64,000 nt of DNA. It comes from Candidatus Taylorbacteria bacterium RIFCSPLOWO2_12_FULL_43_20. GTDB taxonomy: Bacteria > Patescibacteriota > Minisyncoccia > Phycocordibacterales > HO2-43-120. A program made the position numbers and the translations under genes. The notes below the pieces were generated by a model. That model had not been told where the DNA came from, made no database searches, and saw only the letters and a list, made by a program, of their open reading frames with translations. Positions 1,941 to 37,235 of this stretch are shown here, piece after piece; the stretch's first letter is position 1, and each line of letters begins with the position of its first letter. The DNA is taken from NCBI GenBank assembly GCA_001821295.1, contig MHSK01000006.1, positions 11,801-75,800 of the forward strand, read 5' to 3'.

Positions 1941-2000
1941 GGGGGCACCCCATCACCTCGGAAACCTCGGCTCTTCCCCTCTTCTAAAGAGGGGAAGAGG
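1941..2000. repeat. Repeat family A copy 1: cctcggaaacctcgg plus hairpin cttcccctc-N-gaggggaag
   Basis: About 60 bp near-identical to 37104-37165. Contains a perfect inverted repeat ctcttcccctc/gaggggaagag. Confidence 0.8.
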
Positions 2001-2037
2001 AAATCCTCCAGCCATGCCGATTGCGTAAGTTCTAATA

Positions 2038-2295
2038 TTATATAGGAAATTCCGCGGGATCTATAATACCCGAAGGCAAATCTCCTCCGCCTCCTCCACC
2101 AAACTGGGTTGAAATGACTATAATTGTAATAATAACCACAACGATCGCCACGCCGAGCAAATATATTTGCGCCTGAGCATAGGATTTGGCTCCCATCTTC
2201 ATGGCAAGTTTAGTCAAGAAAGAACCCTTCTTTTCCCCGCTTGCAACCACAGGAGAAACATAAGTCCTATCACCTTCAAATTCAACGTTATCCAT
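2038..2295 (-). CDS. Small hypothetical membrane protein (85 aa, one TM helix, Gly-rich tail)
   Basis: ORF with hydrophobic stretch LLGVAIVVVIITIIVI. No recognisable family. Confidence 0.4.
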   Translation of the reverse strand: MDNVEFEGDRTYVSPVVASGEKKGSFLTKLAMKMGAKSYAQAQIYLLGVAIVVVIITIIVISTQFGGGGGGDLPSGIIDPAEFPI

Positions 2296-2319
2296 AAATT
2301 TTAGAAAGCTTATAAATTT

Positions 2320-2358
2320 TATTCGCGTGCACTATTCGTTAAGCGGTATCTACATTGA
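2320..2358 (+). repeat. Repeat family C copy 1 (attcgYgtgcactWttcgttaagcggtatctac)
   Basis: Shares about 30 bp with copies at 46905-46935, 50288-50318, 50350-50390, 50943-50976 and 52453-52490, all in the same orientation. Confidence 0.75.
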
Positions 2359-2366
2359 TATTCATA

Positions 2367-2486
2367 GGACTTACGCAGTTGGATGCAGTTCGAGGCGCAA
2401 GCGAGGATTGCGACCAAAATGTATACTTATACATTGCGGGAGCAAACGGAGTTTGCAACGAAGAAATGCGCCGACTGCGTAAGTCC
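2367..2486 (+). mobile_element. MITE-like 120-bp element, family B copy 1, with 13-bp terminal inverted repeats ggacttacgcagt/actgcgtaagtcc
   Basis: Near-identical copies at 17988-18107 (inverted) and 34042-34161, plus a partial 5' copy at 52405-52434. Non-coding and intergenic. The internal palindrome is atgtatacttatacat. Confidence 0.7.
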
Positions 2487-2586
2487 TAATTCATACTATA
2501 CCATACACTCCCACCACATCAAGAGAAATTCAGTGGAAATATTGTTGTTTGTGGTCTGGCTCAAATTCGCTATACTTTAAACAATT

Positions 2587-5500
2587 ATGCCGAAATTTAC
2601 TCATCTTCATACCCACTCCCACTATTCCCTTTTAAACGCCCTGCCACGACTGCCGGAGCTGGTAAAATCAGCGAAAAAAGACGGCATGGAAGCACTCGCC
2701 CTGACCGATAACGGCAATCTATATGGGGCGATTGAATTTTACAAAGAATGTGAACAGCAGGGCGTGAAGCCCATACTCGGCATAGACGCTTACAAAGCCC
2801 TGCGTACGAGATTTGACAAGCAAGCCGGTATAGACAACAAACGAACGAGATTGATATTGTTGGCAAAAGACAATGACGGCTACAGAAACCTAATCAAGCT
2901 CGTTACGTACTCCAACCTTGAGGGGTTCTATTACAAGCCGAGAATCGATGACGAACTCCTTCGTAAATACGGAAGTCATCTGATATGTATTTCTCCGGCC
3001 GGAAACGGAGAAATATCAAACATGCTTAGAGTTGGTGATTTTGACGGCGCCAAGAGCAAAACACGCGCTTACGGCGAAATTTTCGGCCGTGATAATTTTT
3101 ATTTGGAAGTGACTCGCCATCCTCAAGATGAAGAGCACGAAAAAATTTTGCCGGATATTAAAAAACTTTCAGAGCAAACGGGAGCAGAGCTCGTTGGCGC
3201 GCACGATATTTACTACATAGACCCTGAAGACAAAAAAGCCCGAGACACATTGCTTTCCGTCCAAACCTCCGGCGATTTCAGCGAAAGAAGGGCCTTTGGC
3301 CGAAGTGAGAACGATTACTCTTTTCAACTTAGCGCAAAAATGAAAGAGGTGTTGAGAGATTTCAACGGCGCGTATGAAAACGCGGGAAAGATCGCCGATA
3401 AATGCAATCTTTCGCTGGAACTCGGCAAGTGGCTTTTTCCGGAATACAAGGTTGAAAGCGGATTATCATATGATGAAGAACTCAGGAGAATAGTGGAGTC
3501 GGGAATGGATAGACGCGGAGTCAAGCCGACGGAAGAAGTCAAAAAACGGCTAGAATACGAGCTGGGGATTATTTTCCAGAAAGGATACGCGCCGTATTTT
3601 TTGGTCGTAGGAGACCTGCTTCGCTTCGCTCATGAACGCAAAATATTGACGACTATACGAGGATCGGTTGCCGGTTCGCTCGTCACCTACCTTGCAGGCA
3701 TTACCAATGTAAACCCCCTTGAATACAAAATTCCGTTTGAACGATTTCTCAATCCTGAAAGACCGTCCGCTCCCGATATAGACATGGATTATGCTGACGA
3801 CAGACGGGATGAAGTTATAGAATACACGAAAAATAAATATGGTGTGGACAAAGTAGCGCAAATAGGAACTTTCGGAACAATGATGGCGCGCGGCTCTGTC
3901 CGCGACGTCACCAGAGCGCTCGGACATCCCTACGGCGTAGGCGATGAACTTGCAAAAATGATACCGATGGGATCGCAGGGGTTTCCCATGACCATAGACC
4001 GCGCTCTTGAAATTGTCCCTGAACTTGCGAAAAAATATAAAGAAGATCAGACCTCAAAAGAAATAATGGACATCGCAAAAAAAATTGAGGGGTGCGCCCG
4101 GCATATCAGCGTGCACGCGGCAGGCGTGGTTATATCTCCTGTCCCGCTAACCGATATTGTCCCTTTGCAATACGACACCAAAGGAGAAAATAAAATCATC
4201 ACTCAGTATGACATGTATTCAATTGACGAGAACAATGCCGGACTTTTGAAATTTGATTTCCTGGGAATCAAGAATCTTTCAATTTTGGCAGAGTCGGTAG
4301 ATCATGCCAACAAGCGCTACGGCGCAAACATAGATATAGAAAAAATCCCGGTGGATGATGTCAAGACTTTTGATCTTTTGTCCCGAGGCGAAACAGCCGG
4401 ACTCTTCCAGATGAACGGCTCCGGCATGACCGCCTACCTGAAACAGCTGAAGCCGACAAGTATTTTTGATATCAACGCCATGGTCGCCCTTTATCGCCCT
4501 GGCCCCATGGAATCCATTCCACAGTACATAGAGCGAAAACATAACCAGCATCTGGTATCTTACCTGGATCCAAGAATGAAAAATATTTTGGATCAGTCAT
4601 ACGGGGTTATAACATACCAGGACGACGTTCTCCTCATCGCCATAAATCTTGCCGGATATACATGGCTTGAGGCAGATAAACTTCGTAAAGCCATGGGCAA
4701 AAAAATCCCCGAAGAAATGGAAGCTCAAAAAGAAAAACTTATTCAAGGCCTAGAGAAAAATGGCATGAATGGCAAGAAAGCCGGCGCCCTATGGAAGCTC
4801 ATAGAGCCTTTTGCCGCGTATGGATTCAATAAAGCCCATGCCGCTAGCTACGGCCGCGTGGCGTACCAGACCGCTTACATGAAAGCCAATTTCCCCGCCG
4901 TGTATATGTCATCCGTGCTCACGGCGGACTCCGGAGATGTGGAAAAAATCGGAGAAATAATCTCGGAGTGCAAGCGAATGAATATTCCGGTTTTACCCCC
5001 GGATATCAATGAGAGCTTTGCCGACTTTGCGGTCGTCGGCTCCGGCAAACCCGACGATGAAGAAAAAATTCGTTTTGGGCTGACAACTATAAAAAACTTT
5101 GGGGTCGGAATAGCGCAAATCATAATTGATGAGCGTGAAAAAAACGGAAAATACAAATCATTATCGGATTTTCTGGATAGAGTTAAAGATAGAAATCTGA
5201 ACAAAAAATCCCTGGAAGCTCTGGTCAAATGCGGTGCGTTGGATTCCTTCGGTGAAAGAGGTACCATGCTCGCCAATATAGAGGATCTTCTCGCTTATAA
5301 TAAAGAACAGTCTAAAAACAGCAATCATGATTCATTGTTCGGCGGGCTTTCCGAAGAAAACACGGGGATAAAAATGGCGCCGGCGGAAAAAGCAACCATG
5401 AATGATATGCTTGCGTGGGAAAAAGAGCTTCTCGGGCTATATATCTCCGGACATCCTTTGGACCGCGTAAAAGATCAATTGACGCGGCAAGGGAATAGTA

Positions 5501-5775
5501 TAAAAAAGATCAAAGAAGAACTGAAGGAAGGGATGACGACGGTGATAGCCGGAATTGTGGAAGAAGTAAAACCCTTACTGACTAAAAAAGGCGAGCAAAT
5601 GATGTTTATGAGAATAGCGGACTATACCGGATCAATAGAAACGGTCGTATTCCCCAGAGTGCTTACGGAATACAAAACCCTGCTGACTCCCGAATCCTGT
5701 ATCGCCATCAAGGGGAAATTCTCTTTGCGTAATGATACTCCCAGCATCCTCGTGGATAAAGTGAAAGGATTGTAG
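2587..5775 (+). CDS. dnaE: DNA polymerase III alpha subunit
   Basis: 1062 aa. N-terminal PHP domain (HLHTHSHYSLL), conserved polymerase core, OB-fold tail. Confidence 0.95.
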   Translation: MPKFTHLHTHSHYSLLNALPRLPELVKSAKKDGMEALALTDNGNLYGAIEFYKECEQQGVKPILGIDAYKALRTRFDKQAGIDNKRTRLILLAKDNDGYRNLIKLVTYSNLEGFYYKPRIDDELLRKYGSHLICISPAGNGEISNMLRVGDFDGAKSKTRAYGEIFGRDNFYLEVTRHPQDEEHEKILPDIKKLSEQTGAELVGAHDIYYIDPEDKKARDTLLSVQTSGDFSERRAFGRSENDYSFQLSAKMKEVLRDFNGAYENAGKIADKCNLSLELGKWLFPEYKVESGLSYDEELRRIVESGMDRRGVKPTEEVKKRLEYELGIIFQKGYAPYFLVVGDLLRFAHERKILTTIRGSVAGSLVTYLAGITNVNPLEYKIPFERFLNPERPSAPDIDMDYADDRRDEVIEYTKNKYGVDKVAQIGTFGTMMARGSVRDVTRALGHPYGVGDELAKMIPMGSQGFPMTIDRALEIVPELAKKYKEDQTSKEIMDIAKKIEGCARHISVHAAGVVISPVPLTDIVPLQYDTKGENKIITQYDMYSIDENNAGLLKFDFLGIKNLSILAESVDHANKRYGANIDIEKIPVDDVKTFDLLSRGETAGLFQMNGSGMTAYLKQLKPTSIFDINAMVALYRPGPMESIPQYIERKHNQHLVSYLDPRMKNILDQSYGVITYQDDVLLIAINLAGYTWLEADKLRKAMGKKIPEEMEAQKEKLIQGLEKNGMNGKKAGALWKLIEPFAAYGFNKAHAASYGRVAYQTAYMKANFPAVYMSSVLTADSGDVEKIGEIISECKRMNIPVLPPDINESFADFAVVGSGKPDDEEKIRFGLTTIKNFGVGIAQIIIDEREKNGKYKSLSDFLDRVKDRNLNKKSLEALVKCGALDSFGERGTMLANIEDLLAYNKEQSKNSNHDSLFGGLSEENTGIKMAPAEKATMNDMLAWEKELLGLYISGHPLDRVKDQLTRQGNSIKKIKEELKEGMTTVIAGIVEEVKPLLTKKGEQMMFMRIADYTGSIETVVFPRVLTEYKTLLTPESCIAIKGKFSLRNDTPSILVDKVKGL

Positions 5776-5858
5776 CTATTTCATTCAACATTGAAGATAA
5801 GGGCCCGTATCTGCTCACAGAGCCGAGTAATCCGCCAACTGTAACACTTTTTTCTTCT

Positions 5859-5935
5859 GTCATTCCCGCAAAGGCGGGAATCCAGATTCAAATGCTTGCT
5901 AGATTCCCGCCTTCGCGGGAATGACACCCCTCAGA
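5859..5935. repeat. Long palindrome: two 24-nt arms gtcattcccgcaaaggcgggaatc/gattcccgccttcgcgggaatgac, 1 mismatch, 29-nt spacer
   Basis: Seen directly. Lies 85 bp downstream of the dnaE stop. Each arm has its own sub-hairpin cccgcaaaggcggg. Confidence 0.8.
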
Positions 5936-6035
5936 GTTGTGAACAGTTACAGGGCCAGGGCCCTGAGTTGACTTTTTTACCTCATCATGCTTAAATGATA
6001 TTGAACAGCACAAAAATTCAACTCTACGGCAAAAA

Positions 6036-6440
6036 ATGACAAATGTACTTGTAGTGGAAGATGACGATCGCATGCGCCACATTATGTCTGAGCTCTTTGA
6101 AACTTACGATTTGCGTCTTATACCCGCGCAAAACACGGTTAAAGCGGAGCAAATTTTGGCATGGGACGAAACAATAAAGATCGTGGTGCTTGACGGCAAC
6201 TTAACACCTGAACGCAAAGCCAGCTCGACTCCTGATACGTTGCCGCTCGCCTGCAAGCTTCTGCAGGAAGACTACACGGTATACGCGGTGAGCAACAACC
6301 ACCATCATCAACACGCCCTTTCAAATGCTGGCTGTGTGATAAGCACGAAGCATGAGGTCGCCAAGCTCATAGCGGCATATTTGCATGTAAAAGGGTGCTC
6401 CGATAGTTGGGAGAGCAAATCCCTCCGCCAAAAAGCGTAA
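6036..6440 (+). CDS. Stand-alone response-regulator receiver (CheY-like REC) domain protein
   Basis: LVVEDDDRMR...IVVLDGNLTP pattern of REC domains. No output domain. No histidine kinase in the window. Confidence 0.65.
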   Translation: MTNVLVVEDDDRMRHIMSELFETYDLRLIPAQNTVKAEQILAWDETIKIVVLDGNLTPERKASSTPDTLPLACKLLQEDYTVYAVSNNHHHQHALSNAGCVISTKHEVAKLIAAYLHVKGCSDSWESKSLRQKA

Positions 6441-6454
6441 AATTCACACACAAT

Positions 6455-6487
6455 ACCAAACAGCACCGCATCTGTTTGGTTTTTTTA
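6455..6487 (+). terminator. Rho-independent terminator after the REC gene
   Basis: Hairpin accaaacag-caccgcat-ctgtttggt followed by TTTTTTT. Confidence 0.75.
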
Positions 6488-6530
6488 TTATTCCCTTCTA
6501 AACTTAACGTCTTTCTGCTATCATCTGCTC

Positions 6531-8279
6531 ATGAGTGGCAACGACGATCACATATCAAAAATCAGGCATTCTCTGGCTCACCTTCTGGCCGCCGCCGTAT
6601 TGGAGCTGTATCCTGAAGCCAAACCCACAATCGGCCCCGCTATAGACAACGGATTTTATTATGATTTTGATTGCGCCTCGGCAATATCCGACAAAGATCT
6701 CGCGAGGATAGAAGACAAGATGAAAGAAATAGTAAAATCATGGCAATTGTTTGAGGATAAAACTGTCACACCTGACGAAGCACAACAAATTTTTAAAGGC
6801 AATCCTTACAAACTGGAGCTCATTCGCGAAATATCGGCAAAAAACGAAGTTATCACGATATATACATCAGGAAATTTTACTGATCTGTGCCGAGGAGGCC
6901 ATGTAGATAACCCCTCCGCTCACATTCCGCGGAACTCGTGGCGGCTAGACAAAGTCGCGGGAGCATATTGGAAAGGCGATGAAAAAAATAAAATGCTCTT
7001 GAGAATTTACGGTCTTGCTTTCAGTACCAAAGACGAACTTGACGAATATTCCGAGCAAAGGGAGGAGGCAAAAAAAAGAGATCATAAAAAGCTGGGCAAA
7101 GAGCTTGATCTATTTACGTTTTCCGATTTAATCGGTGGAGGGCTACCTCTTTGGACCCCCAAAGGCACGTTGATGCGCGACCTTTTAGACAGCTATGTCT
7201 GGCAGCTTAGACAAAAACACGGGTATGTGAAAGTGGACATTCCTCATATAACAAAAAAAGATCTGTATGAAAAAAGCGGACATTGGGATAAATTTCAAGA
7301 GGAGCTTTTTAAAATAAAAACCAGAGAAAAACATGAGTTTGTGATGAAGCCCATGAGTTGCCCGCATCATACGCAGATTTTCGCCCGCAAACCTTGGAGT
7401 TATCGCGACCTGCCCCAGCGTTATGCCGAAACGACAAAAGTGTACCGAGATGAGCAGTCTGGAGAACTCGCGGGGCTGTCCAGAGTCAGAGCTATCACTC
7501 AGGATGACGCGCATGTCTTTTGCAGGAGTAATGACGTCAAGAATGAGATGTCTAAGATTTGGGATATCATAGCAAAATTCTATGGCGCGTTCGGCTTTGA
7601 ATTATCTGTCAGAATTTCTCTTCATGATCCGGACAATATGGACAAATATCTCGGTGACGAAGAGACATGGATAAAATCCGAAAACGAACTTAGGGAGCTG
7701 GTAAAAGAGAAAAAGAGCGATTATACAGAATGCGCTGGTGAAGCGGCTTTCTACGGGCCTAAGATTGATTTCATGGGAAAGGACGCATTGGGAAGAGAAC
7801 ATCAGGTAGCCACTATCCAGCTAGACATGAATTTACCGGAGCGGTTTGATCTATTCTGCATCAACGAAAAAGGCGACAAAGAAAGAATTGTTATGATACA
7901 CGCCGCGATAATGGGATCGATTGAAAGATTTCTTTCCATAATTATTGAACATTTCGCGGGAGCGTTTCCTCTTTGGCTTTCACCTGTACAGATAAGCATC
8001 CTGGCTGTAAGTGACAAGCATACTGAAGCGGCCGGAAGGGCATTGGAGGAATTAAACGGCGCGGGAATAAGAGCCGAATTGACAGATCCGAATATCAGTA
8101 TTGGCAAACGCGTCAGAGAAATAAAGATGCAAAAAATTCCTTACTGGATTGTTATCGGAGACAAAGAGGCTTCTAATAACTCGGCCGCTCTGGAGCACAG
8201 GGAAAGCAAGCTGGGAACTCTTTCTATTGAAGACGTAATCTCCAAACTGAGGAAGGAGATCGTAGACAAAACTCTTTAA
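6531..8279 (+). CDS. thrS: Threonine--tRNA ligase (short form without N-terminal TGS domain)
   Basis: Class II aaRS motifs, MSCPHHTQIF, C-terminal anticodon-binding domain. 582 aa. Confidence 0.92.
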   Translation: MSGNDDHISKIRHSLAHLLAAAVLELYPEAKPTIGPAIDNGFYYDFDCASAISDKDLARIEDKMKEIVKSWQLFEDKTVTPDEAQQIFKGNPYKLELIREISAKNEVITIYTSGNFTDLCRGGHVDNPSAHIPRNSWRLDKVAGAYWKGDEKNKMLLRIYGLAFSTKDELDEYSEQREEAKKRDHKKLGKELDLFTFSDLIGGGLPLWTPKGTLMRDLLDSYVWQLRQKHGYVKVDIPHITKKDLYEKSGHWDKFQEELFKIKTREKHEFVMKPMSCPHHTQIFARKPWSYRDLPQRYAETTKVYRDEQSGELAGLSRVRAITQDDAHVFCRSNDVKNEMSKIWDIIAKFYGAFGFELSVRISLHDPDNMDKYLGDEETWIKSENELRELVKEKKSDYTECAGEAAFYGPKIDFMGKDALGREHQVATIQLDMNLPERFDLFCINEKGDKERIVMIHAAIMGSIERFLSIIIEHFAGAFPLWLSPVQISILAVSDKHTEAAGRALEELNGAGIRAELTDPNISIGKRVREIKMQKIPYWIVIGDKEASNNSAALEHRESKLGTLSIEDVISKLRKEIVDKTL

Positions 8280-8314
8280 ACAAGAAACAATCGGTAATCG
8301 GCATATTTTCTCCC

Positions 8315-8345
8315 AAGAATGTCAACGCTTAGCGTTGACATTCTT
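8315..8345. promoter_or_regulatory. 31-bp palindrome, family F copy 1: aagaatgtcaacgc-tta-gcgttgacattctt
   Basis: Perfect 14-nt arms. Copies at 8604-8634 and 9942-9972. Confidence 0.7.
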
Positions 8346-8603
8346 CATTTACAAAAAAGCCAGATTGCATGAATCTGGCGTAACGAAAGAACAAGGTTGG
8401 GTGCAAGGTACTTCCTGGATAGTAGATGCTGAGCATTTCAGAAAAGCCCCCTGCCCCAACCAAAAATATTTGGTCGGCCAAGCGGAATGCTGCGATTTAG
8501 AGAATGGTTCCCCCTTTTCATTCCGCCCAGCCAAAAACAATGATAATTCATATTCCCCTGTTTGCAAAGTTGACAATCCGCATGATATATTTTCTACCTT
8601 ACC

Positions 8604-8634
8604 AAGAATGTCAACACTAAGTGTTGACATTCTT
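8604..8634. promoter_or_regulatory. Palindrome F copy 2, overlapping the uvrC stop codon
   Basis: aagaatgtcaacac-taa-gtgttgacattctt. Confidence 0.7.
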
Positions 8635-9905: not shown

Positions 9906-9941
9906 ATATTAACTCATATCCTCCGTCTCATCAAAACATCC

Positions 9942-9972
9942 AAGAATGTCAACACTTAGTGTTGACATTCTT
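9942..9972. promoter_or_regulatory. Palindrome F copy 3 (arms extend to 18 nt) 37-67 bp upstream of the uvrC start
   Basis: atccaagaatgtcaacac-tta-gtgttgacattcttggat. A candidate -35/-10 pair TTGATG-17-TAATAT lies between it and the start codon on the minus strand. Confidence 0.6.
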
Positions 9973-10027
9973 GGATATAAAAAAACGGATGACCATGTAA
10001 TATGGCATCCGCTTCAATCAACTTAAA

Positions 10028-13236: not shown

Positions 13237-13691
13237 GTAAAAACAAAATTAGCCCCATGTATATTCATAGGGTGTGTATGGAATGATAGCAGACCTTCGG
13301 CCAGGCGTCCACAAGATTTCTAAATATCTTTTTTATGTGTCTTGCTGTATTTGGGGCCCTTTTTTTAATATATGGCATTATCCAGCTAGTGACATAGATG
13401 CCCCCAGCAATATATCTCAATAATTAAAATATCAGAGTCAGCTACTGTTCTAAAAATTATTTGTCCACAATATCAACGGTTGTGGCTATATTAATATTAA
13501 CTATTCTTGTTATCCCAATAGAAGAAATGATCACGCTCGCGGTAAAGGAAGAGAGGTCGAATGTTACAGCTTGGATTTCCTACCTATCAAACTTCACTTA
13601 GGATACAGCGGGCACGGCACGGACGGAATGACACCATGCAGAATTGTGAGCAGTTGCAAATCTTAGTCTTTTACACTTTGCTAAAAAGGAT

Positions 13692-15368: not shown

Positions 15369-15377
15369 TGTTATATC

Positions 15378-15525
15378 GTGAATTACGAAACTCTTTTCTC
15401 AGCAGGGCTTTTGCGGAACACGGGTATTTTTTTGGTAAAAAATCCCTATGCAGAGCCCGTCGGCTTGCGCAATGTTCCGCAAAAGCCCTGCCTTCGACGA
15501 GTTTCGTAATACAAGGTGTTATACG
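15378..15525. repeat. Repeat family D: inverted pair (15378-15423 and 15473-15525), gtgttccgcaaaagccctgc-N-gagtttcgtaatac
   Basis: Two arms of about 40 bp in opposite orientation separated by about 50 bp. More copies at 37187-37235 and 56288-56328. Confidence 0.75.
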
Positions 15526-17944: not shown

Positions 17945-17987
17945 ATTGTGAGTGGCTTATTCTTATAATTACTAATTGCCATCCTTT

Positions 17988-18107
17988 ATGACTTACGCAG
18001 TCGGCGCATTTCTTCGTTGCAAGCTCCGTTTGCTCCCGCAATGTATGAGCATACATTCTGGTCGCAATCCTCGCTTGCGCCTCGAACTGCATCAAAATTC
18101 GTAAGTC
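17988..18107 (-). mobile_element. MITE-like element family B copy 2 (inverted orientation)
   Basis: Reverse complement of 2367-2486 with a few substitutions. One terminal repeat is degenerate (aaattcgtaagtcc). Confidence 0.7.
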
Positions 18108-18175
18108 CTATCGTTAATAAATACATTATATATAATTCACGGTTCTCGGTACAGCTATTTCATCTACATATACCA

Positions 18176-18255
18176 TGGGTTTTCATCAATCTGCAAGCCA
18201 TAAATTCACAACATGCTATAGTACATTTCAACTTGTAACGGCACTAGCCATTAGA
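18176..18255 (-). repeat. Inverted repeat G, left copy, immediately downstream of ackA
   Basis: Reverse complement matches 21800-21872 over about 68 bp with 3 mismatches (agtgccgttacaagttRaaatgtactatagcatgttgtgaatttatggcttgcagattKatgaaaa). Confidence 0.85.
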
Positions 18256-21799: not shown

Positions 21800-21872
21800 A
21801 CCAGTGCCGTTACAAGTTAAAATGTACTATAGCATGTTGTGAATTTATGGCTTGCAGATTTATGAAAATCCA
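21800..21872 (+). repeat. Inverted repeat G, right copy, immediately upstream of xfp. A partial inverted partner aacttgtaacggtactag lies at 21893-21910.
   Basis: See 18176-18255. Confidence 0.85.
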
Positions 21873-21948
21873 TGGTGCATGCAGAGAAAATTAACTTGTA
21901 ACGGTACTAGTAACCACGAAATTCGAAGCGAAACTCAAAAAACAGTAT

Positions 21949-26510: not shown

Positions 26511-26767
26511 ATATTTTGGTTATTTACTGATATCTATAGCGTCCTCATAGTATATCGCAATAGCAGCCATTCATCACTATTATATATCTCGAAACATTTT
26601 TTAATCAACTACCCCGCCCCAAGGGGTTCCCTCACTCGCTCCGTTCGTATCGGCGGGGTATCTAGGAGCTTTGCTCTGGATTATCTTGAAAACCAAGGTT
26701 TTCAAACTTTCCTTAGCGGAAACTCCGCAGCAAGCTGACGGAGAATATTTTTATTTAACCTGAATAA

Positions 26768-28435: not shown

Positions 28436-28526
28436 GCCTCTGAATTAAAACTTTTTATTTACGGTCAACTCTACTATTCTTTCAAATTTGTCGTATTTCA
28501 TCTTTGTGTAAAAAGCTTTATAACAA

Positions 28527-28784: not shown

Positions 28785-28785
28785 A

Positions 28786-29148: not shown

Positions 29149-29310
29149 AGTAGATATCGCTTAACGAAAAGCGCACACAAATAAAGTCCCGCGGTGACAC
29201 TCTTCAATTTATATGTACATAATAGCGTACATCGTGCAACGATGCAAGTTTACGGCTGTAAAAAACCCGCCAAGTGTGGCGGGTTTGTGAGGATAGCAAC
29301 TGGATACGAC

Positions 29311-30609: not shown

Positions 30610-30756
30610 GACTGTAGCCCTTCCTTCTTTCGTTAGATTTATTTGTCTATTTGCCAATTGCCAAACAACTGAACTCTACCGTCATACTACCAAATGTTTA
30701 AAAGAAAACCAAATGGCTTTCTCTTAACACAATTTGACTGCTGTAGTACTGTAAAT

Positions 30757-31302
30757 TCAAGTAGATGCATACTCCCAGCCGGGTTGCCAAGATTTAGTTT
30801 TTCTCCAGTCTCCCGCAAATGCCTCTTCCCATGTTTTGCCCTTTAGCAACACATCCAACGATAACTGGGGGGCTTTGTGAGCCACGACAGCGACATGTTT
30901 TCCGTCATAATCTTTTTTTAAATCTTCAAGAAAAGAGGCAATGCGATTCTTTACATCCTCGTAACTTTCTCCGTTTGGCATAGAAGTATTTATAGATTTT
31001 TCTTGCAGCGGCTCAACCACATCTGATGGCTTTCCATTGAGGTCTCCATAGTTGAATTCCCGAAGACGCTCGTCCTTGATGATTTTATATTTATTTCCCC
31101 ACGTTAACTCGGCAGATTTAAATGCCCTTTGGAGATCTGACGTAAAAACCACATCAAAAAATTTATCGGCAGTTTTGTCTGCCAATTCTTTTGACTGCCG
31201 TATTCCTAATTCCGACAACTCCGCATCCTTCCATCCGGACGAAATCCCTTGTTCATTATCCTTAGTCGTCCCGTGCACAAAGTATGTCAATCTTACGCTC
31301 AT
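30757..31302 (-). CDS. Histidine phosphatase superfamily protein (phosphoglycerate-mutase-like), variant catalytic motif
   Basis: N-terminal LTYFVHGTT (RHG-like), and the …VVAHKA… His region of the branch-1 fold. Confidence 0.6.
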   Translation of the reverse strand: MSVRLTYFVHGTTKDNEQGISSGWKDAELSELGIRQSKELADKTADKFFDVVFTSDLQRAFKSAELTWGNKYKIIKDERLREFNYGDLNGKPSDVVEPLQEKSINTSMPNGESYEDVKNRIASFLEDLKKDYDGKHVAVVAHKAPQLSLDVLLKGKTWEEAFAGDWRKTKSWQPGWEYAST

Positions 31303-31618
31303 AGTAATTTTTATTAAATTTATACATCTTAGTTCAAAACATTCAAAATATAGCCTAAAAAAACTAGAGGCATGCCAACAACACCCAACCTCTGTTCAAT
31401 ACGCATAACACGAAACACGCGCGAAGAAATTTTGTGCTCGTTTAAAACTCGGTGATGGACCCGAAGCGCTGCCCAGGCAATAAGAAGCGTTCCTATTGCC
31501 TCCAGTGTAATAATTGTAAATTCCATATTTAACCATTATACCCCTATTCTAAATCTCAGGTAAACAGCGTCCTGTACGGTAAAATGGTGTTAATTTCTCT
31601 TTATTGTAAGATTATGAA

Positions 31619-32701
31619 ATGACACTAGAGGATCTGGGGTACAACAACGCCTTTGAAGAAAATAGGAAAAAGCTTGAGCTTTGCGAATTTTCAGTTGCCC
31701 GCATCATTTCCGAGTTTAAAGGTGAATACAAAGTAATAAACGCAAATGGCGAACACCGAGCAAGAGTCACCGGCAAGCAAATGTTTACGGCCTCATCCAG
31801 AGAAGATTATCCCGCTGTCGGAGACTGGGTTGCGATTTCCGAACTAGATAACGGGCAAGCTATCATCCGAGGCATATTACCAAGGCAATCAATACTAAAA
31901 AGAACTTTCGGTGATAAAAATAGATCTGGAGAAAAAGACGAGATACAGGTTATCGCCGCAAACATTGACGAGGCATTTGTTATTGAATCAATTGACAGAG
32001 ATTATAATTTAAACCGTTTTGAACGGTATTTCGCCATTTCGGAAAGTAACGGCGTACAGCCGGCAATAATTTTGAATAAGATCGATCTTATTTCCAAAGG
32101 AGAGTTGAATGATAAATTGATTCAGCTAAAAAAGAGATTCCCTGACATCAATATTATTTTCACAAGCACCGTGAATGATCACGGTCTTGATGATCTGAAT
32201 AAATACATCAGCAAAGGAAAAACATATTGTTTTCTAGGTTCATCCGGAGTCGGAAAATCCACATTGATAAACCGGCTTCTCGGTGAAGATTCTATAAAGA
32301 CCGGCACTATCAGCCGCTTATCGGGACGAGGCAAACATACCACTACCAGCCGGCAAATGTACTTTCTCGAGAATGGCGGAATAGTGATAGATAACCCGGG
32401 TATACGAGAAGTGGGTGTCGCTCGCGTGTCTGAAGGAATCGGCACTTTGTTTGATGAAATTACAGCGATTGCCGAGCAATGCAAATACGCTGATTGCACA
32501 CACACTCATGAACCCGGATGCGAAGTTATTGGAGCGGTAAAATCCAACAAATTAGACAAAGAAAAATATACTAACTACCTCAATCTCAAGAAAGAAACCG
32601 AGTATCATGATATGAACGAATTGGACAAAAGAGAAAAAGATCGCAAATTTGGCAAGTTCATGAAAAAAGCAAAAAGAGATCTCAAGGATTTTGATTTGTA
32701 G
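31619..32701 (+). CDS. rsgA: Ribosome small-subunit-dependent GTPase A
   Basis: Circularly permuted GTPase: GSSGVGKSTLINRL, DNPG, C-terminal zinc knuckle CTHTHEPGC. Confidence 0.9.
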   Translation: MTLEDLGYNNAFEENRKKLELCEFSVARIISEFKGEYKVINANGEHRARVTGKQMFTASSREDYPAVGDWVAISELDNGQAIIRGILPRQSILKRTFGDKNRSGEKDEIQVIAANIDEAFVIESIDRDYNLNRFERYFAISESNGVQPAIILNKIDLISKGELNDKLIQLKKRFPDINIIFTSTVNDHGLDDLNKYISKGKTYCFLGSSGVGKSTLINRLLGEDSIKTGTISRLSGRGKHTTTSRQMYFLENGGIVIDNPGIREVGVARVSEGIGTLFDEITAIAEQCKYADCTHTHEPGCEVIGAVKSNKLDKEKYTNYLNLKKETEYHDMNELDKREKDRKFGKFMKKAKRDLKDFDL

Positions 32702-32730
32702 TGGTTGTATGACTACTGTTCCCTGCCTTT

Positions 32731-33231
32731 TTAAGAACTGTTAACTAATGAATTGAGATCGGCTTCATTAAGTTTTGCTAGTACTGCATTAATTTTTTCT
32801 AATGCAACTACTTTTTCATCAGCATTCTCCGCTTTAGCTTGTTCTATCATTTGCTCAACCTTTATAATTTGGGGTGTTTTGTATTTATCTTTATTCTTTC
32901 CATCAATTCTTATTATTACCTCACCCAAAAAGGGCTTGTCTGTAAATGTTGAAACAAGCTTGTACGTACAGCTCCCATCTGGATTATTTTCGGTTCCATC
33001 CATCCTAAAACCTGACCCACTAAACGCTTTGGCAACCTGTTCAGTTTGAGCTCCTATGTCTATTTGCACAGACTCAACGGTTCTATAAATTTCTTCAACT
33101 TCAGATGAGCTTAACACTCCATCCAAAACCGCGTCATTAAACGCCTTATAAGCTTCTTGCCTCGGGCCGTTAATTAACATCTCATATCCTCCTTTTTGTG
33201 CTTGTTCCCCTATATTTTCTCGCATGTTCAT
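32731..33231 (-). CDS. Hypothetical protein (166 aa)
   Basis: ORF only. Confidence 0.35.
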   Translation of the reverse strand: MNMRENIGEQAQKGGYEMLINGPRQEAYKAFNDAVLDGVLSSSEVEEIYRTVESVQIDIGAQTEQVAKAFSGSGFRMDGTENNPDGSCTYKLVSTFTDKPFLGEVIIRIDGKNKDKYKTPQIIKVEQMIEQAKAENADEKVVALEKINAVLAKLNEADLNSLVNSS

Positions 33232-33464
33232 TTTTTAATGTGTAATAAAATTATTATATCATCATTTTCGTTACTGCCGGCCAGGGACCATGAATACATT
33301 TCTCTCCCTCGACTCTCGTCGTGCCGTCGCACTCCTCGGTCTGGGCACCAGCTCGTCTGTTTTTTCTACTGAAAAAACATGACTCCGCTGTTCTCGTCCC
33401 TACGCGAGTGAAGCAGTTCACTCGCTGGCCGGCAGCAAAGCCTTTCGCTTCGCTCATTGCTTTA

Positions 33465-33535
33465 CTGCCGGCCAGGGACTCGAACCCCAATACCCGCCTC
33501 CAAAGGGCGGTGTCCTACCATTAGACGAGCCGGCA
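33465..33535 (-). tRNA. tRNA-Gln (anticodon UUG)
   Basis: Minus-strand sequence TGCCGGCTCGTCTAATGGTAGGACACCGCCCTTTGGAGGCGGGTATTGGGGTTCGAGTCCCTGGCCGGCA(G). Perfect 7-bp acceptor stem with U1:A72 and G73 as in bacterial tRNA-Gln. Anticodon stem CCGCC/GGCGG, loop CTTTGGA. Confidence 0.85.
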
Positions 33536-33610
33536 ATATTTTTATCCATATTAAGATTTTTGTATTATGCCTTTTATATCAGACTTTTTCAATGATTGAT
33601 CTTCTTTCCA

Positions 33611-33660
33611 TTGGCTAATTCGTGAGAATATGCCTCTAGGGACAATGTCTTATTCATGAG
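33611..33660 (+). repeat. Repeat family J copy 1 (ttggctaattcgtgagaatatgcctctagggacaatgtcttatt)
   Basis: A 20-bp core, atattctcacgaattagccaa, is shared with 33947-33974 (inverted) and 50761-50800. It contains the imperfect palindrome TATTC-N4-GAATA. Confidence 0.7.
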
Positions 33661-33662
33661 TT

Positions 33663-33923
33663 TTACAAAATAGATATGATTTCTTTCGCTCCAGGTTTTT
33701 GGATTTTGTGAAGATAATAATGCATTTCCAGCCCCTTCTGATCCCTGCCTATGATTTCCGCCGCATATAGAACAGACAGGTGCCTGGAGGTTGATTTAAA
33801 GGATAATTTTATATTTTCCGCCAACTCCCCAACAGTTAAATCACTACTTTTCTTCAACAGTCTGGCAATGGCCAATCTGCGTCTGTTTGCCAGCGCTTTT
33901 ATGCTTTTTTCTAAATCATTCAT
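33663..33923 (-). CDS. ArsR/SmtB-family HTH transcriptional regulator
   Basis: 86 aa. LANRRRLAIARLL…LTVGELAENIKLSFKSTSRHLSVL is the winged-HTH pattern of the ArsR family. Confidence 0.7.
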   Translation of the reverse strand: MNDLEKSIKALANRRRLAIARLLKKSSDLTVGELAENIKLSFKSTSRHLSVLYAAEIIGRDQKGLEMHYYLHKIQKPGAKEIISIL

Positions 33924-33946
33924 ATTTTTTCACGCCTCTATTCTCT

Positions 33947-33974
33947 TATTCTCACGAATTAGCCAATAGAGAAT
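33947..33974 (-). promoter_or_regulatory. Repeat J copy 2 (inverted) in the arsR-like promoter region; candidate auto-operator
   Basis: tattctcacgaattagccaatagagaat. Lies 25-50 bp upstream of the regulator start. Confidence 0.5.
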
Positions 33975-34041
33975 CTGAGGGGTATTATTGTTAATTTTAT
34001 TATATTTTTATAATTTTCAGCACCTCCCTCTATTCACTATA

Positions 34042-34161
34042 GGACTTAGGCAGTAAGATGCAGTTCGAGGCGCGAGCGAGGATTGCGACCAAAATGTATG
34101 CTTATACATAGCGGGAGTAAACGGAGCTTGCAGAGAAGAAATGCGCCGGATGCGTAAGTCC
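34042..34161 (+). mobile_element. MITE-like element family B copy 3
   Basis: ggacttaggcagt…gatgcgtaagtcc, about 90% identical to 2367-2486. Confidence 0.7.
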
Positions 34162-34177
34162 TATACTATCCACTTTT

Positions 34178-35215
34178 TCAATCGCTGTGTTTGGATATTA
34201 ATGAAATAAGAGCAAGTTCCAAGGGAAGTTCGGGAAGATGGGCGTAGCCCGCGACATCATACGCATTGAGAAGCTCAAGGAGAGTTTTGGATGAAATTTT
34301 GGATTCAGGATTCTCCGCGATTTTTTGTAGAAAAGAATAGTCGCTTTCCGTCACCTCATCTTTTATCAGCTGTTCCATATCTTTTGCATATTTCAAAAGC
34401 AAAATTAATCTGATCTTATGCATAACCAGTTTAATGAATACCCTCATATCTACATTGGCGTCATTAGCCCTTCGCACAGCCATTAGACCCCGCTCCAAAT
34501 CCGACACCTCTATAGCCTCAATAAAATCATTGACCAGTTCGCCTTTGGGAGCGCCGGAAACCAGCTCCACCTCGTCAGCGCTGATTTTTTTATCTTTGGA
34601 AAAACTCAATACTTTCTGTAAAATATTCTGCGCGTCCCTGAATGACCGATCGCCAAGCACGGCAATGAGCTCCGCCGATGACGGCTCCAAAGTATAGCCC
34701 TCTTTCTTGGCGATGGAAATAACCACATTTTTCAAAACCTCCTGGCTTGGTTTTTTAAACTGAAATACCTGACAGCGAGACACTACCGTTTCCGGCAACT
34801 TCTCCATTTCCGTCGTGGCGAGAATAAACACAACATGCCGCGGCGGCTCTTCCAGAGTTTTCAACAAAGCATTAAACGCTTCTTTCGTAAGCATATGAAC
34901 TTCGTCTATTATGTAAACCTTGTATTTTGATCTGAACGGCAAAGTGCTGACACCTTCCTTGAGCTCTCTTACGTCATCAATGCCTCTATTGGAAGCGGCA
35001 TCTATTTCGTATAGGTCATCCGAAGCAGTGCCTATCTGACTAGCGAATATCCTGGCAATAGATGTCTTGCCGATTCCTCTCGTGCCAAAAAACAAATAAG
35101 CATGAGATATCTTGCCCGAGTCTATGGAGCCCTTGAGTACATTGACAATATGATCTTGACCAATAATTTCCTTAAACGACGAGGGTCTGTATTTTCTATA
35201 TAAAGCCAATTCCAT
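34178..35215 (-). CDS. dnaX: DNA polymerase III subunit gamma/tau (short form)
   Basis: YRKYRPSSFKEIIGQDHIV…FFGTRGIGKTSIARIFA (Walker A), DEVHML, SRC sensor motif. Start set at MELALYRKY. Confidence 0.9.
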   Translation of the reverse strand: MELALYRKYRPSSFKEIIGQDHIVNVLKGSIDSGKISHAYLFFGTRGIGKTSIARIFASQIGTASDDLYEIDAASNRGIDDVRELKEGVSTLPFRSKYKVYIIDEVHMLTKEAFNALLKTLEEPPRHVVFILATTEMEKLPETVVSRCQVFQFKKPSQEVLKNVVISIAKKEGYTLEPSSAELIAVLGDRSFRDAQNILQKVLSFSKDKKISADEVELVSGAPKGELVNDFIEAIEVSDLERGLMAVRRANDANVDMRVFIKLVMHKIRLILLLKYAKDMEQLIKDEVTESDYSFLQKIAENPESKISSKTLLELLNAYDVAGYAHLPELPLELALISLISKHSD

Positions 35216-35269
35216 GCACCTAGTATACAACATTTGAAATAAAAAAAACGGCATGCGTAACACAGCCGT

Positions 35270-35563
35270 TCACGTCAGAAATCCTCTCGGCAAATCGGAA
35301 CAATCAATGCCCCCGTAGCAAGCGCCAACCCTCATCAAGGATTCGACGCCAAGCGCCCTTTCTTCCTCTGATACACAAGTAGAAAACATTCCCCAAAATC
35401 TTCGATCCGCATTGTTCAGAATCTCATCAATCAGACATGCCGGCACCTCCGCGTCATGACAAGCCTTCACAAATCTGCCTCTGACTCTCCTGTTTTTTGG
35501 AATTCCGATATTGAGTATAGTATTTCTCATAATCACTCTTTCTACATAAATTATACACGGCAA
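35270..35563 (-). CDS. Hypothetical Cys-rich small protein
   Basis: ORF. 7 Cys in about 85 aa. Possible metal-binding. Confidence 0.3.
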   Translation of the reverse strand: MPCIIYVERVIMRNTILNIGIPKNRRVRGRFVKACHDAEVPACLIDEILNNADRRFWGMFSTCVSEEERALGVESLMRVGACYGGIDCSDLPRGFLT

Positions 35564-35624
35564 ATAATGAAGTCAACAGTTCATGAAAAAAACCGCGCAA
35601 GGCGCGGTTGGAAAGAGCGTCGGA

Positions 35625-35909
35625 TCAAGCGGCTTGCGTTTCTTTGGTGTGAAAAGCTTCCGCGACAAAGGGAAGACTTCGCAAGTAATCCTTGGCAGAT
35701 TCTTCTCCTTGAAGGTAAATCTCGCCAAAGTCTTTAACCTGCTCATCTGTCATTTGTCTGCATATGTGATGCACATGATCTTCAAGATCCATTTCCAAAA
35801 GGATTCTGTGGATCTCGTAGGCAATCTCTCTAAATTCAATAAGAGATCTTTTTTGAACCAACGCAGTGTAATAAGCCCTTGCTAAAATCTGTAAACATGG
35901 AGTTTGCAT
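35625..35909 (-). CDS. Hypothetical small helical protein
   Basis: ORF only. Confidence 0.3.
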   Translation of the reverse strand: MQTPCLQILARAYYTALVQKRSLIEFREIAYEIHRILLEMDLEDHVHHICRQMTDEQVKDFGEIYLQGEESAKDYLRSLPFVAEAFHTKETQAA

Positions 35910-35997
35910 AACAGGCGGTGAAAGAAGTTAATCTAATGCAAATTATATGCCAGAGTCGGGCGAACACAAGGCACAGCAGATACCGTGTACAGTTAGT

Positions 35998-36984
35998 TTA
36001 TAGCTTGAGATAATCTTGAACTACTTTCTCTACTTCGGCCGAATTGTTTGTTTCGAAAAGTTGGACCCTCAATTCTTTGGCGCCATCCCATCCTGTCACA
36101 TAGCATTTGTAATGCTTTTTCATTATGGCGAAACTCTTCGTGTCGCCTAAAAGTTCTTCAAATAATCTCGTGTGCTCAACCATAATCCCCAGCCTCTTTT
36201 GGATATCCAAATCTGCCATCGTCTGTTTATCATTGAACAGATAAGGGTTCCCAAATATGGCCCTTCCGAGCATTGCGCCATCCGCCCCGCTCTCGCGAGA
36301 TTTCGCGCGCGCGGCCGCAATGTCAGCCACATCTCCATTTCCAAAAATGAGCGTCCCGCTTCCCACTTCATCTCTTATCTCCACCGCCCTTCTAACTCTT
36401 TCCCATTTCGCGGGAACTTTTGACATTTCCTTCCTCGTGCGAGCGTGAACAGTAATCGCCGCCGGATCCTCGGCCAGCAATTCCGAAAGCCAAGTTTCCA
36501 ACTCATCTTTATTGTATCCGAGCCGAGTTTTAACAGACACTGGAATATTTTTCGCACCGCGTTTTGCCGCTCTTATTATTTCACGCGCGAGTTTAGGATT
36601 CTTTATAAGCGCGGCCCCGGCCCCCTGTTTCTCCACGCTTCTGTCAGGACAACCCATGTTAATATCCAAACCATCAAAGCCAAGATCGTTCACCAATGCC
36701 GCGGCTTCCTCCATAGTTTCCGGATTTGCTCCGAAAAGCTGGGCGATAATGGGACGCTCCTCTTTGTCATACGCGAGATCTTTCAATAATTTCTCTTTGC
36801 CCTTTTTATCCGCGAGCATAAGACCGTCCGCCGATACGAACTCAGTCCACATGGCATCCGGCTTGCCATATTTTGCTATTATCTTTCTAAAAGCCGCGTC
36901 CGTGACATCAGCCATGGGCGCTAATAGCAAAATCGGCCTCTTTTCCTTTTCCGCGTTATTCTTTATTTTTCTCCAAATATCCAT
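35998..36984 (-). CDS. dus: tRNA-dihydrouridine synthase
   Basis: LLAPMADVTDAAFR…GFDGLDINMGCP…TVHART TIM-barrel Dus motifs. Confidence 0.88.
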   Translation of the reverse strand: MDIWRKIKNNAEKEKRPILLLAPMADVTDAAFRKIIAKYGKPDAMWTEFVSADGLMLADKKGKEKLLKDLAYDKEERPIIAQLFGANPETMEEAAALVNDLGFDGLDINMGCPDRSVEKQGAGAALIKNPKLAREIIRAAKRGAKNIPVSVKTRLGYNKDELETWLSELLAEDPAAITVHARTRKEMSKVPAKWERVRRAVEIRDEVGSGTLIFGNGDVADIAAARAKSRESGADGAMLGRAIFGNPYLFNDKQTMADLDIQKRLGIMVEHTRLFEELLGDTKSFAIMKKHYKCYVTGWDGAKELRVQLFETNNSAEVEKVVQDYLKL

Positions 36985-37103
36985 CCAGCCAGCATACCAA
37001 AGATTTGCAAATATTTCCTATTGAATTTTGAATTGCGAAACTCGTCGCAGGCAGGGCTTTAATGGAAATTTCCAATATCTAATTACTAATTCCCAATGGA
37101 AGA

Positions 37104-37165
37104 TGGGACACCCCTTCGCCTCGGAAACCTCGGCACTTCCCCTCTAAAGAGGGGAAGATGGGGAG
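37104..37165. repeat. Repeat family A copy 2
   Basis: ccccttcgcctcggaaacctcggcacttcccctctaaagaggggaag. Confidence 0.8.
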
Positions 37166-37186
37166 GGTCTCTCCCGTCGACTAACA

Positions 37187-37235
37187 CAATGTTCCGCAAA
37201 AGCCCTGCCGAGAAAAGAGTTTCGTAATACACCGT
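37187..37235 (+). repeat. Repeat family D copy 3
   Basis: tgttccgcaaaagccctgccgagaaaagagtttcgtaatac. Confidence 0.75.

Follow-up and report, generated by a model that had tools for sequence, protein, structure and literature searches.

What are the short repeats that occupy the intergenic DNA of a bacterium with a very small genome, and how did they come to lie there? The question is raised by a stretch of 64,000 nt (hereafter the window) from Candidatus Taylorbacteria bacterium RIFCSPLOWO2_12_FULL, a member of the candidate phyla radiation (CPR; Patescibacteria) that originates from Rifle groundwater. A preliminary description of this DNA had proposed that its intergenic regions are saturated with distinct short repeat families (A, D, E, H, I and J), which together resemble the repetitive extragenic palindromes (REP) and bacterial interspersed mosaic elements (BIME). 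Our analysis leads to a different picture. Very probably, several unrelated small non-coding repeat families have colonised the intergenic DNA, and they fall into four classes: miniature inverted-repeat transposable elements (MITEs), a double hairpin related to the Neisseria Transformation Sequence (NTS) and the Ssn-related motif (SRM), the hairpin modules A and I, and the operator-like family J. Rather than forming one system, the families are of different kinds.

The existence of the repeats is not in doubt. Self-BLASTN of the window at a threshold of E<0.01 recovers the families A, D, E, I and J, and all six families, including H, which is too short for this threshold, lie at or within a few bases of the coordinates given earlier. 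The 47 intergenic regions (9 kb) contain 54 repeat pairs between regions and 23 within regions, while 50 dinucleotide-preserving shuffles yielded on average 0.88 (maximum 4) and 0.5 pairs, respectively. When the window is compared with itself and with 177 kb of further DNA (see below), repeats cover 25% of the intergenic but only 0.7% of the coding bases. Moreover, 25 intergenic regions exceed 150 nt, and repeats account for 20 or more bases in 17 of these, in two cases due to a private palindrome only. Thus, the terms "saturated" and "nearly every" region longer than 150 bp were overstated and "rich in" is the better wording, but it was correctly recognised that the repeats are structured and nearly confined to intergenic DNA. 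The DNA-fold stabilities of the hairpins correspond to z-scores from -4 to -12, and the exception is J, which is unstructured (z -0.5).

The window has a GC content of 43%, and intergenic DNA makes up about 9 kb (14%). Its gene content is ordinary housekeeping (dnaE, thrS, uvrC, uvrA, murJ, ackA, xfp, gyrB, pheT, prfA, rpmE and others), together with two tRNAs. For a census of the repeats beyond the window, the D pattern, which has three matches in the window, was scanned over JGI metagenomes. The scan yielded 30 loci with 259 kb, of which 177 kb are non-redundant; the window and these 177 kb constitute the 241 kb to which the site counts below refer (census loci are labelled with L numbers, L093 to L114 in this text). 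The loci are located on many contigs and have zero overlap with the unique DNA of the window. Judged by sequence, they belong to the same population as the window because L093 is 100% identical to a part of the contig L086 from the European Nucleotide Archive (ENA), namely the 5.5 kb that this contig attaches to the murJ gene of the window, and because the GC contents are alike (0.44 and 0.43). In the 241 kb, there are 13 sites of A, 29 of D, 21 of the E element or its core, 18 of I, three of J and two of H, as well as 17 of a CGTTAAGCGGTATCTAC module, nine of a 126-nt element and 12 of a hairpin flanking uvrC. The D pattern had no match in 185,579 species genomes, a collection that does not contain this organism, and the specific D and I patterns had none in viral contigs. 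A loose 17-base version of the D pattern gave 79 single matches in gut-phage contigs, which is about the number expected by chance, and was discarded. The nearest relative (65% MurJ identity) has kept the synteny of murJ with the upstream gene encoding a tetratricopeptide repeat (TPR) protein. In this relative, none of the repeat families of the window was found, although it has long palindromes of its own.

Metagenome assemblies may contain collapsed or chimeric repeats, which had been named as a possible refutation of the earlier observations. Two metagenome-assembled genomes (MAGs) of the organism at NCBI contain the region, their contigs measuring 67.5 and 73.9 kb. In a comparison over 21.7 kb, the window shows 100% identity with both the MAG GCA_001822555.1 and an independent ENA assembly, and a single 7-nt indel separates it from GCA_001820825.1. 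Indeed, the NCBI, ENA and JGI assemblies give the same intergenic sequence (99.97-100%), the copies of the repeats differ from each other by 2-17%, and every copy has unique flanks and its own duplication. A single contig speaks for an artefact. In L086 (ENA ERZ4903055 k141_2663193, assembled with MEGAHIT), the agreement with the window ends precisely where a D copy has its outer boundary (15517; L086 5500-5530). This contig has only two mismatches to the window, both inside D, and it continues from murJ into a sigma-70/DUF5667 region whose proper place is elsewhere (L093). This join is either a repeat-mediated chimera or a real rearrangement. That the repeats as such are assembly artefacts can practically be dismissed.

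Family D is a classic MITE. The element forms an extended, imperfect palindrome whose arms, about 45 nt each, end in TGAATTACGAAACTC, and the complete copy in the window (Table 1) has a DNA fold of -44.8 kcal/mol (z -10.7). Seventeen full copies align over about 141 nt with 92-98% identity; beyond either end, the similarity is lost at once, and the flanks are unrelated. About 22 of the 29 D sites, on many contigs, are elements bounded by terminal inverted repeats (TIRs). A 7-bp target-site duplication (TSD) is perfect in 9 of 21 copies, matches in at least six of seven positions in 11 of 21, and is perfect in all three copies of the window, while only one of 420 mismatched pairs of left and right flanks was perfect in the control. 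Several of the remaining elements fit the duplication if one boundary is moved by 1 nt. BLASTN delimits the D segments 15378-15420 (inverted), 15456-15513, 37173-37232, 56285-56314 and 37028-37060. The D sites of the preliminary description are therefore real but were partly misread: the segments 15378-15423 and 15473-15525 belong, as its two arms, to a single element and are not separate copies, and 37187-37235 is a right arm, the corresponding left arm of which (37028-37067) had been overlooked. The TPR-murJ spacer, which bears a D element and comprises 173 nt in this genome, has only 97 nt and no D in the nearest relative, which is too distant for a base-level alignment of an empty site and shows only the absence of the family and a shorter spacer. 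A D-type element with family A in its interior is present in the window, and a second one with a different duplication was found in L094 (11941-12200). The idea that A had simply been inserted into D was rejected, as both elements show a rearranged interior and no clean insertion; they represent a D subfamily carrying A. The shortest copy, mini-D, overlaps the stop-codon end of an ORF on the minus strand (56327-56689) at 56327-56332, and its insertion may have supplied or replaced the last codons.

The full E element also has the structure of a MITE. The 34-nt family E that had been described (5918-5951) consists of the right part of a core and the right end of this larger element. The two E sites are indeed copies of each other (82% identity of 5918-5951 and 13625-13658 in BLASTN), but the first one had been placed at 5926-5963 and thus about 8 nt off. 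The inverted ends of the element comprise 22 nt (GTAACTSCTCACAAGRCCGAGT). Three nearly identical elements at different loci are flanked by different perfect 8-bp duplications (CAAATGCC, AAACAAAA and CTTCAATC). In total, three of the six full copies have a perfect 8-bp TSD and two have a partial one (6 nt). Among the latter is the copy of the window, which has the imperfect flanking repeat AGGGCC (5800-5805 and 5951-5956).

An additional element of 126 nt is located at 2364-2489, 17986-18111 (inverted), 34039-34163 and, in part, at 52398-52434. It has 15-nt inverted ends (TAGGACTTACGCAGT) and duplications of about 5 bp, of which one (ATTCA/ATTCA) is perfect and four others match in 4 of 5 positions. 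This element is a third MITE family.

Table 1 Coordinates of the repeat copies and of the associated regulator gene in the window
Feature	Coordinates	Strand	Description
A, hairpin module	1941..2002	+	CACCCCATCRCCTCGGAAACCTCGGC followed by a 9-13 bp stem CTTCCCCTCT..AGAGGGGAAG; DNA fold z -4.0
A, copy	37105..37165	+	Inside the D-type element 37026-37234
D, complete 141-nt MITE	15376..15516	no strand	TPR-gene/murJ spacer; TSD TGTTATA at 15369-15375 and 15517-15523
D-type element, 209 nt	37026..37234	no strand	Perfect TSD TATTGAA at 37019-37025 and 37235-37241; arms 37028-37067 and 37173-37232; interior holds family A (37105-37165)
Mini-D, 46 nt	56287..56332	no strand	Two termini joined (internal deletion); perfect TSD TGATTTA at 56280-56286 and 56333-56339
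E, full element, ~144 nt	5807..5950	no strand	Outer inverted ends GTATCTGCTCACAGAGCCGAGT and imperfect partner CTCAGAGTTGTGAACAGTTAC; DNA fold z -7.9
E, core double hairpin	5858-5926		NTS/SRM hairpins 5858-5885 and 5899-5926
E, solo right-end fragment	13625..13658	+	Last 9 nt of core and right terminal repeat only
H1	26686..26705	no strand	Perfect 20-nt palindrome TTGAAAACCAAGGTTTTCAA
H2	47064..47084	no strand	Palindrome TTGAAAACCCAAGGTTTTCAA; between two 64-nt direct repeats beside tRNA-Thr
I	46846..46933	+	16-bp-stem hairpin 46871-46906; CCCCATTCGTATCTAT before and module TCGTTAAGCGGTATCTACTATAAAC after; z -6.4
I, diverged copy	50846..50900	+	Hairpin 50858-50895; z -5.2
J1	33607..33660	+	Immediately 3' of the ArsR-family gene, ~70 nt upstream of tRNA-Gln; z -0.5, no predicted structure
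J2	33935..33974	-	Operator-type site CTATTGGCTAATTCGTGAGAATAAGAGAATAG, 12-50 nt upstream of the ArsR/SmtB-family gene
J3	50759..50810	+	Upstream of rpmE (ribosomal protein L31, zinc-ribbon form)
ArsR/SmtB-family metalloregulator gene, 86 aa	33663..33923	-	Between J1 and J2; presumed J binder

The three elements would have been dispersed by cut-and-paste or copying by transposases that were supplied in trans, and the long palindromes of the MITEs would now lie between genes in either orientation. Since the duplications of D, E and the 126-nt element comprise 7, 8 and about 5 bp, they point to different staggered cuts and hence to at least three transposases. We infer this mechanism of transposition from the ends and duplications of the elements. 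Several features are shared with MITEs of other bacteria such as Correia of Neisseria, RUP of Streptococcus pneumoniae and Nezha of cyanobacteria: D, E and the 126-nt element are non-coding, have a size of 125-145 nt, possess TIRs and fixed TSDs, and are dispersed in copies whose flanks are unrelated; derivatives with internal deletions and composite subfamilies also occur. To our knowledge, they have no sequence similarity to Correia, RUP or Nezha. In contrast to these known MITEs, no parent insertion sequence (IS) was found for them in the 241 kb, and they reside in a CPR bacterium, whose genome is very small. ORFs that are bracketed by repeats were considered as a parent IS, but they proved to be housekeeping genes only.

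The families A and I are of a different kind. Both are strongly conserved, multi-copy and surrounded by unrelated flanks, and neither TIRs nor target duplications were detected in the aligned copies from the 241 kb. The consensus of A comprises about 57 nt, in which CACCCCATCGCCTCG..CGAGGC precedes the stem CTTCCCCTCT/AGAGGGGAAG, and the two copies of the window are 88% identical (1942-1998 and 37105-37158 in BLASTN). Family I, for which BLASTN pairs 46871-46911 with 50858-50895, has a 16-bp stem (CCGACGCTTCGGTCGG/CCGACCGAAGCGTCGG) with CCCCATTCGTATCYAT in front. The hairpin of I is followed by one of three alternative modules, for instance TCGTTAAGCGGTATCTACTATAA, and the latter is also found behind the same left-hand sequence with the hairpin missing. 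Furthermore, the reverse of the left part of A (GATGGGGTG) precedes many I copies. The occurrence of A in two D-type elements with different duplications indicates that a MITE can carry A along. The modules, including the partners of A and I, are joined in varying combinations and are sometimes carried by D-type MITEs. They are best described as DNA hairpin modules resembling REP/BIME or the NIMEs. A reading of the CGTTAAGCGGTATCTAC module as a promoter was abandoned as there is no acceptable spacing of -35 and -10 elements and the copies point both ways. Strings like TAGCTATTAGCT flank some of the A copies.

It could be argued that the repeats act at the RNA level, for instance as terminators, attenuators, small RNAs or leader structures, and represent a regulatory device shared by many genes. 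Indeed, all families but J fold into stable hairpins, they are intergenic and often located right after stop codons, and a few stem positions have changed on both sides with the pair kept (A: 2 of 12 pairs; uvrC-flanking hairpin: 3 of 15). However, the orientation of the copies relative to neighbouring co-directional genes is even, with 4:3 for A, 5:6 for I and 3:5 for the CGTTAAGCGG module, and no T-run follows the hairpins of A, I, D or E on either strand, as would be expected for intrinsic terminators. An RNA function would also leave the TSDs of D and E unexplained. Moreover, a search of the window with the Rfam 15 covariance models found nothing beyond the two tRNAs even at E<=1, and the nearest relative lacks the families at syntenic positions. 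The covariation check that had been suggested for the hairpins could be carried out, but the stems are nearly invariant and the few double changes correspond to negligible covariation terms (-0.15 kcal/mol for A and -0.1 kcal/mol for the uvrC-flanking hairpin), so that it says little. In sum, RNA function is a very improbable explanation of the repeats.

Another possibility is that A, I and the uvrC-flanking hairpin represent genuine REPs, which would be mobilised by a REP-associated tyrosine transposase (RAYT; IS200/IS605-like) encoded elsewhere in the genome and arranged in BIME-like mosaics. REPs possess neither TIRs nor fixed-length TSDs. Like the REPs of enterobacteria and pseudomonads, A and I are short, stable and imperfect intergenic palindromes without terminal repeats or duplications, and they are multi-copy, occur in both orientations and form mosaics. 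On the other hand, the sequences are unrelated to the REP/BIME of E. coli, as had been stated before, and the copies in the sampled part number tens and not hundreds. No RAYT-like gene was seen among the ORFs bracketed by hairpins in the 241 kb, which cover about a quarter of the ~1-Mb genome and were analysed without a transposase-profile search. The genes that are bracketed by inverted copies of hairpins are housekeeping genes, namely uvrC and purH (both with the AAGAATGTCAAC hairpin) and a gene for a class II tRNA synthetase (SRM, L094). We therefore regard strict REPs as unlikely, though they are the most serious of the alternatives considered here. The resemblance to REP/BIME that had been proposed for all families holds for the mosaic organisation of A, I and the CGTTAAGCGGTATCTAC modules, but not for D and the full E element, which are MITEs.

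The uvrC-flanking hairpin itself (CCAAGAATGTCAACRCTWAGYGTTGACATTCTTGG; stem of 14-16 bp, z -12) occurs in tight local clusters. Its sites include 8313-8345, 8602-8634 and 9940-9974 in the window and the positions 351, 2173, 2680, 3594 and 4152 of L113. The hairpin brackets uvrC in the window and purH in L113, and its loop-closing pair alternates between G-C and A-T.

The core of the E element belongs to yet another class, and this relates E to repeats that have been described in other bacteria. It is a double hairpin of about 70 nt (GTCATTCCCGCRAAGGCGGGAATC ... GATTCCCGCCTTCGCGGGAATGAC), which is also present alone, outside the element, at no fewer than seven sites in the 241 kb. A recent study defined the NTS as CGTCATTCCCGCGMAVGCGGGAATCYRG, which contains the dRS3 repeat, together with the looser SRM, and showed for Neisseria that SsnA, a GIY-YIG protein of 94 aa, cuts the motif on single-stranded DNA and lowers transformation (PMC11893778, Nat Commun 2025). 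The hairpins of the window match the NTS consensus with one mismatch (5899-5926, minus strand) and two mismatches (5858-5885, plus strand), and both fit the SRM pattern. In the 241 kb, there are 16 matches to the NTS with at most one mismatch and 28 to the SRM pattern. Judged by their sequence, the hairpins of the E core are members of the NTS/SRM motif family; the view that E is unrelated to known repeats has thus to be abandoned. A scan of one genome per species uncovered the E-type double hairpin in at least 120 loci, from the Alpha-, Beta-, Gamma- and Deltaproteobacteria, Bacteroidota, Planctomycetota, Chloroflexota, Gemmatimonadota, Omnitrophota, Elusimicrobia and several CPR groups. Among the loci listed, the arms are conserved, the centres variable and the flanks unrelated, and many of them sit within further, locus-specific inverted repeats. 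The likeness to the NTS/SRM, including the dRS3 repeats and the NIME mosaics, extends to the intergenic location, the multiple copies and the fact that hairpins sometimes bracket a gene inversely, as for the class II tRNA-synthetase gene in L094. The housekeeping genes bracketed by hairpins recall the "NTS-gene-NTS" layout of Neisseria. In contrast to the published motif, the hairpins form a fixed back-to-back pair in this organism and are packed in six copies inside a larger MITE with an 8-bp duplication.

These similarities suggest a bolder reading, in which the NTS/SRM hairpins, and perhaps those of A, I and the uvrC-flanking family, serve as sites for GIY-YIG nucleases acting on single-stranded DNA, while the MITEs spread the sites over the genome. 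A single-domain GIY-YIG ORF of 83 aa is encoded in the population (L111, 7335-7586, minus strand; PF01541, 2e-17), and the protein is 33% identical to a GIY-YIG protein from another phylum whose gene is adjacent to an SRM. The protein from L111 is a candidate nuclease of the Ssn type. Nucleases of the SsnA type are single-domain GIY-YIG proteins (cd10448), and the motif typically flanks their genes; an SRM-flanked ssnA gene was not found in the 241 kb. By analogy with Neisseria, an Ssn-type function in this organism may be envisaged, but we consider the nuclease-site reading as rather doubtful. If it were true, a CPR bacterium would possess a genome-wide system for editing single-stranded DNA that enters the cell or is being replicated. 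CPR bacteria rely on pili and on the uptake of DNA. A GIY-YIG gene of 92 aa is also present in the nearest relative (L240, 10870-11148), just past the locus with arsR and a tRNA gene, and it is probably the counterpart of the gene in L111.

Family J had been listed as a further dispersed repeat, yet by its position and sequence it appears to be a conserved operator of a transcription factor. BLASTN detects J at 33607-33654, 33947-33970 (inverted) and 50760-50805, and the first two sites enclose a gene for an 86-aa regulator of the ArsR/SmtB family (Pfam HTH_5, 2.6e-8; NCBIfam HTH_metalloreg, 59.5 bits with a cutoff of 55) that is widely conserved in Patescibacteria. The gene order dus-dnaX-arsR has been retained in the nearest relative (L240), whose regulator is 65% identical, while that of a third lineage (L241) shows 56% identity. 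In both L240 and L241, the palindrome CTATTCTCTTATTCGTGAGAATAAGAGAATAG lies upstream as well as downstream of the orthologous gene, and the motif ATTCGTGAGAAT is part of a 32-nt palindrome (CTATTCTCTTATTCG..CGAATAAGAGAATAG); this placement corresponds to the arrangement of J1 and J2 in the window. J is thus, on these comparisons, the predicted operator of the adjacent ArsR/SmtB-family repressor and not a mobile element, and we infer that the regulator binds to it. Sites that flank the repressor's own gene would give autoregulation, and rpmE would be a further target because J3 lies 70-120 nt upstream of its probable start (likely 50687). The tRNA-Gln gene is possibly another one. As in other ArsR/SmtB systems, the motif is found in the regulator's own promoter region, has dyad symmetry (perfect in the relatives) and recurs in front of a gene for a zinc-ribbon ribosomal protein. 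Unlike in these systems, the regulator has no recognisable metal-site cysteines among its 86 aa, and the conserved second site downstream of the gene is unusual. One may also regard the J copies as the inverted termini of a very small mobile cassette whose cargo is the ArsR-family gene, the copy near rpmE then being a solo end, given that J1 and J2 form 24-nt inverted repeats (96% complementary) around the gene. Such a cassette is highly improbable, since the dus-dnaX-arsR synteny is kept in the relative, the motif flanks the orthologue there and in the third lineage, flanking duplications are absent, and the motif recurs in the other 177 kb only as one exact 12-mer site (L107). The operator reading implies a small, testable regulon, comprising the gene of the ArsR-type repressor and rpmE, for a regulator that is widespread in Patescibacteria.

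Several observations weigh against the view of four classes of repeats with a mostly mobile origin. Inspection of pairs of terminal repeats and of repeat-bracketed ORFs in the 241 kb revealed neither a transposase gene nor a complete IS whose ends match, and the scans of viral contigs and of the species collection yielded none either; within the 241 kb, no pair of D ends encloses a long ORF, as an autonomous IS would, and the mobilising enzymes may no longer be present. Near-identical strains (identity of at least 99.97%) revealed no polymorphism of filled and empty sites and hence do not show that the elements are currently active. For A and I, mobility would be indicated solely by dispersed copies with unrelated flanks. 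All census loci were chosen for containing D, which biases the repeat densities outside the window, and they can be assigned with confidence to the population of the window but only presumptively to its very own genome. The flanks of the GIY-YIG gene in L111, the only small gene of this type seen in the 241 kb, contain neither an SRM nor another dispersed repeat. Finally, the J sites of the window have kept only one half of the palindrome, and J1 and J3 share about 20 further bases that are not part of the sites in the relatives.

Taken by themselves, MITEs, REP/BIME-like mosaics, SRM hairpins and ArsR operators are known kinds of elements. Mildly new are the repeat load of a very small genome, the SRM pair as cargo of a MITE and the J regulon. 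In the searchable full-text literature, we found no report on MITEs in CPR bacteria or Patescibacteria, and the study defining the NTS does not mention Patescibacteria (PMC11893778). Here, about a quarter of the intergenic DNA is covered by repeats from at least three MITE families and several hairpin families. Genomes of CPR bacteria have a size of about 1 Mb and are usually called streamlined. This lineage has experienced the activity of mobile DNA, even though no transposase was seen in the 241 kb. It also appears from the sequences that the Ssn-related hairpin extends to CPR bacteria and can be cargo of a MITE. Moreover, such repeats break or mis-join metagenome assemblies, as illustrated by the one public contig that changes at D.

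Family H is real but has just two copies, the second of which lies about 4 nt away from the position given before. A pattern search expects 0.03 matches by chance, with a pattern that was defined after the copies had been seen. Both copies share the short left flank GCTTTGCTC, neither has a T-tract, and no more copies were found in the 241 kb. H could be an operator or the remnant of an integrated element. The second copy lies within the 87 nt that separate two direct repeats: the last 18 nt of the tRNA-Thr gene (47180-47253, minus strand) and the 46 nt downstream are duplicated with 98% identity 151 nt further on (46983-47046 and 47134-47197). This duplication looks like the att-type trace of a small element that had integrated at the 3' end of the tRNA gene. 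A second tRNA-end duplication of the same style involves tRNA-Gln (33464-33536, minus strand), whose 3' 16 nt and the next 7 nt are repeated with 91% identity 191 nt downstream (33266-33288 and 33457-33479); a part of the 168 nt between these repeats recurs in L100 (83%).

Some further repeats were observed. An 89-nt inverted repeat (91% identity; 18157-18245 and 21803-21891) brackets ackA-xfp and has two more copies (L106/L112 and L107). The first 137 nt of the window belong to another dispersed family. It has 19 sites, partial or full, in the 241 kb, often adjoins I or A modules and contains TTTTTGAATTTACAATTTTTTCG and a GGTGAGCC...GGGTCGAACC segment. The only intergenic sequence that is conserved in the nearest relative (83%, E 4e-11) is a 7-nt-periodic run (AGCTAATAGCTATTAGCTACTAGCTCTTAGCTTT) at 49158-49192; it is located between prfA and the next gene in the window, while its counterpart (L088, 10643-10696) lies downstream of gyrB. 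The only coding repeats of the window are two adjacent pilin-like genes (767-1264 and 1283-1876) with an N-terminal methylation motif, which share an 87-nt stretch (87%), and L114 contains a third paralogue with 95% identity over 189 nt.

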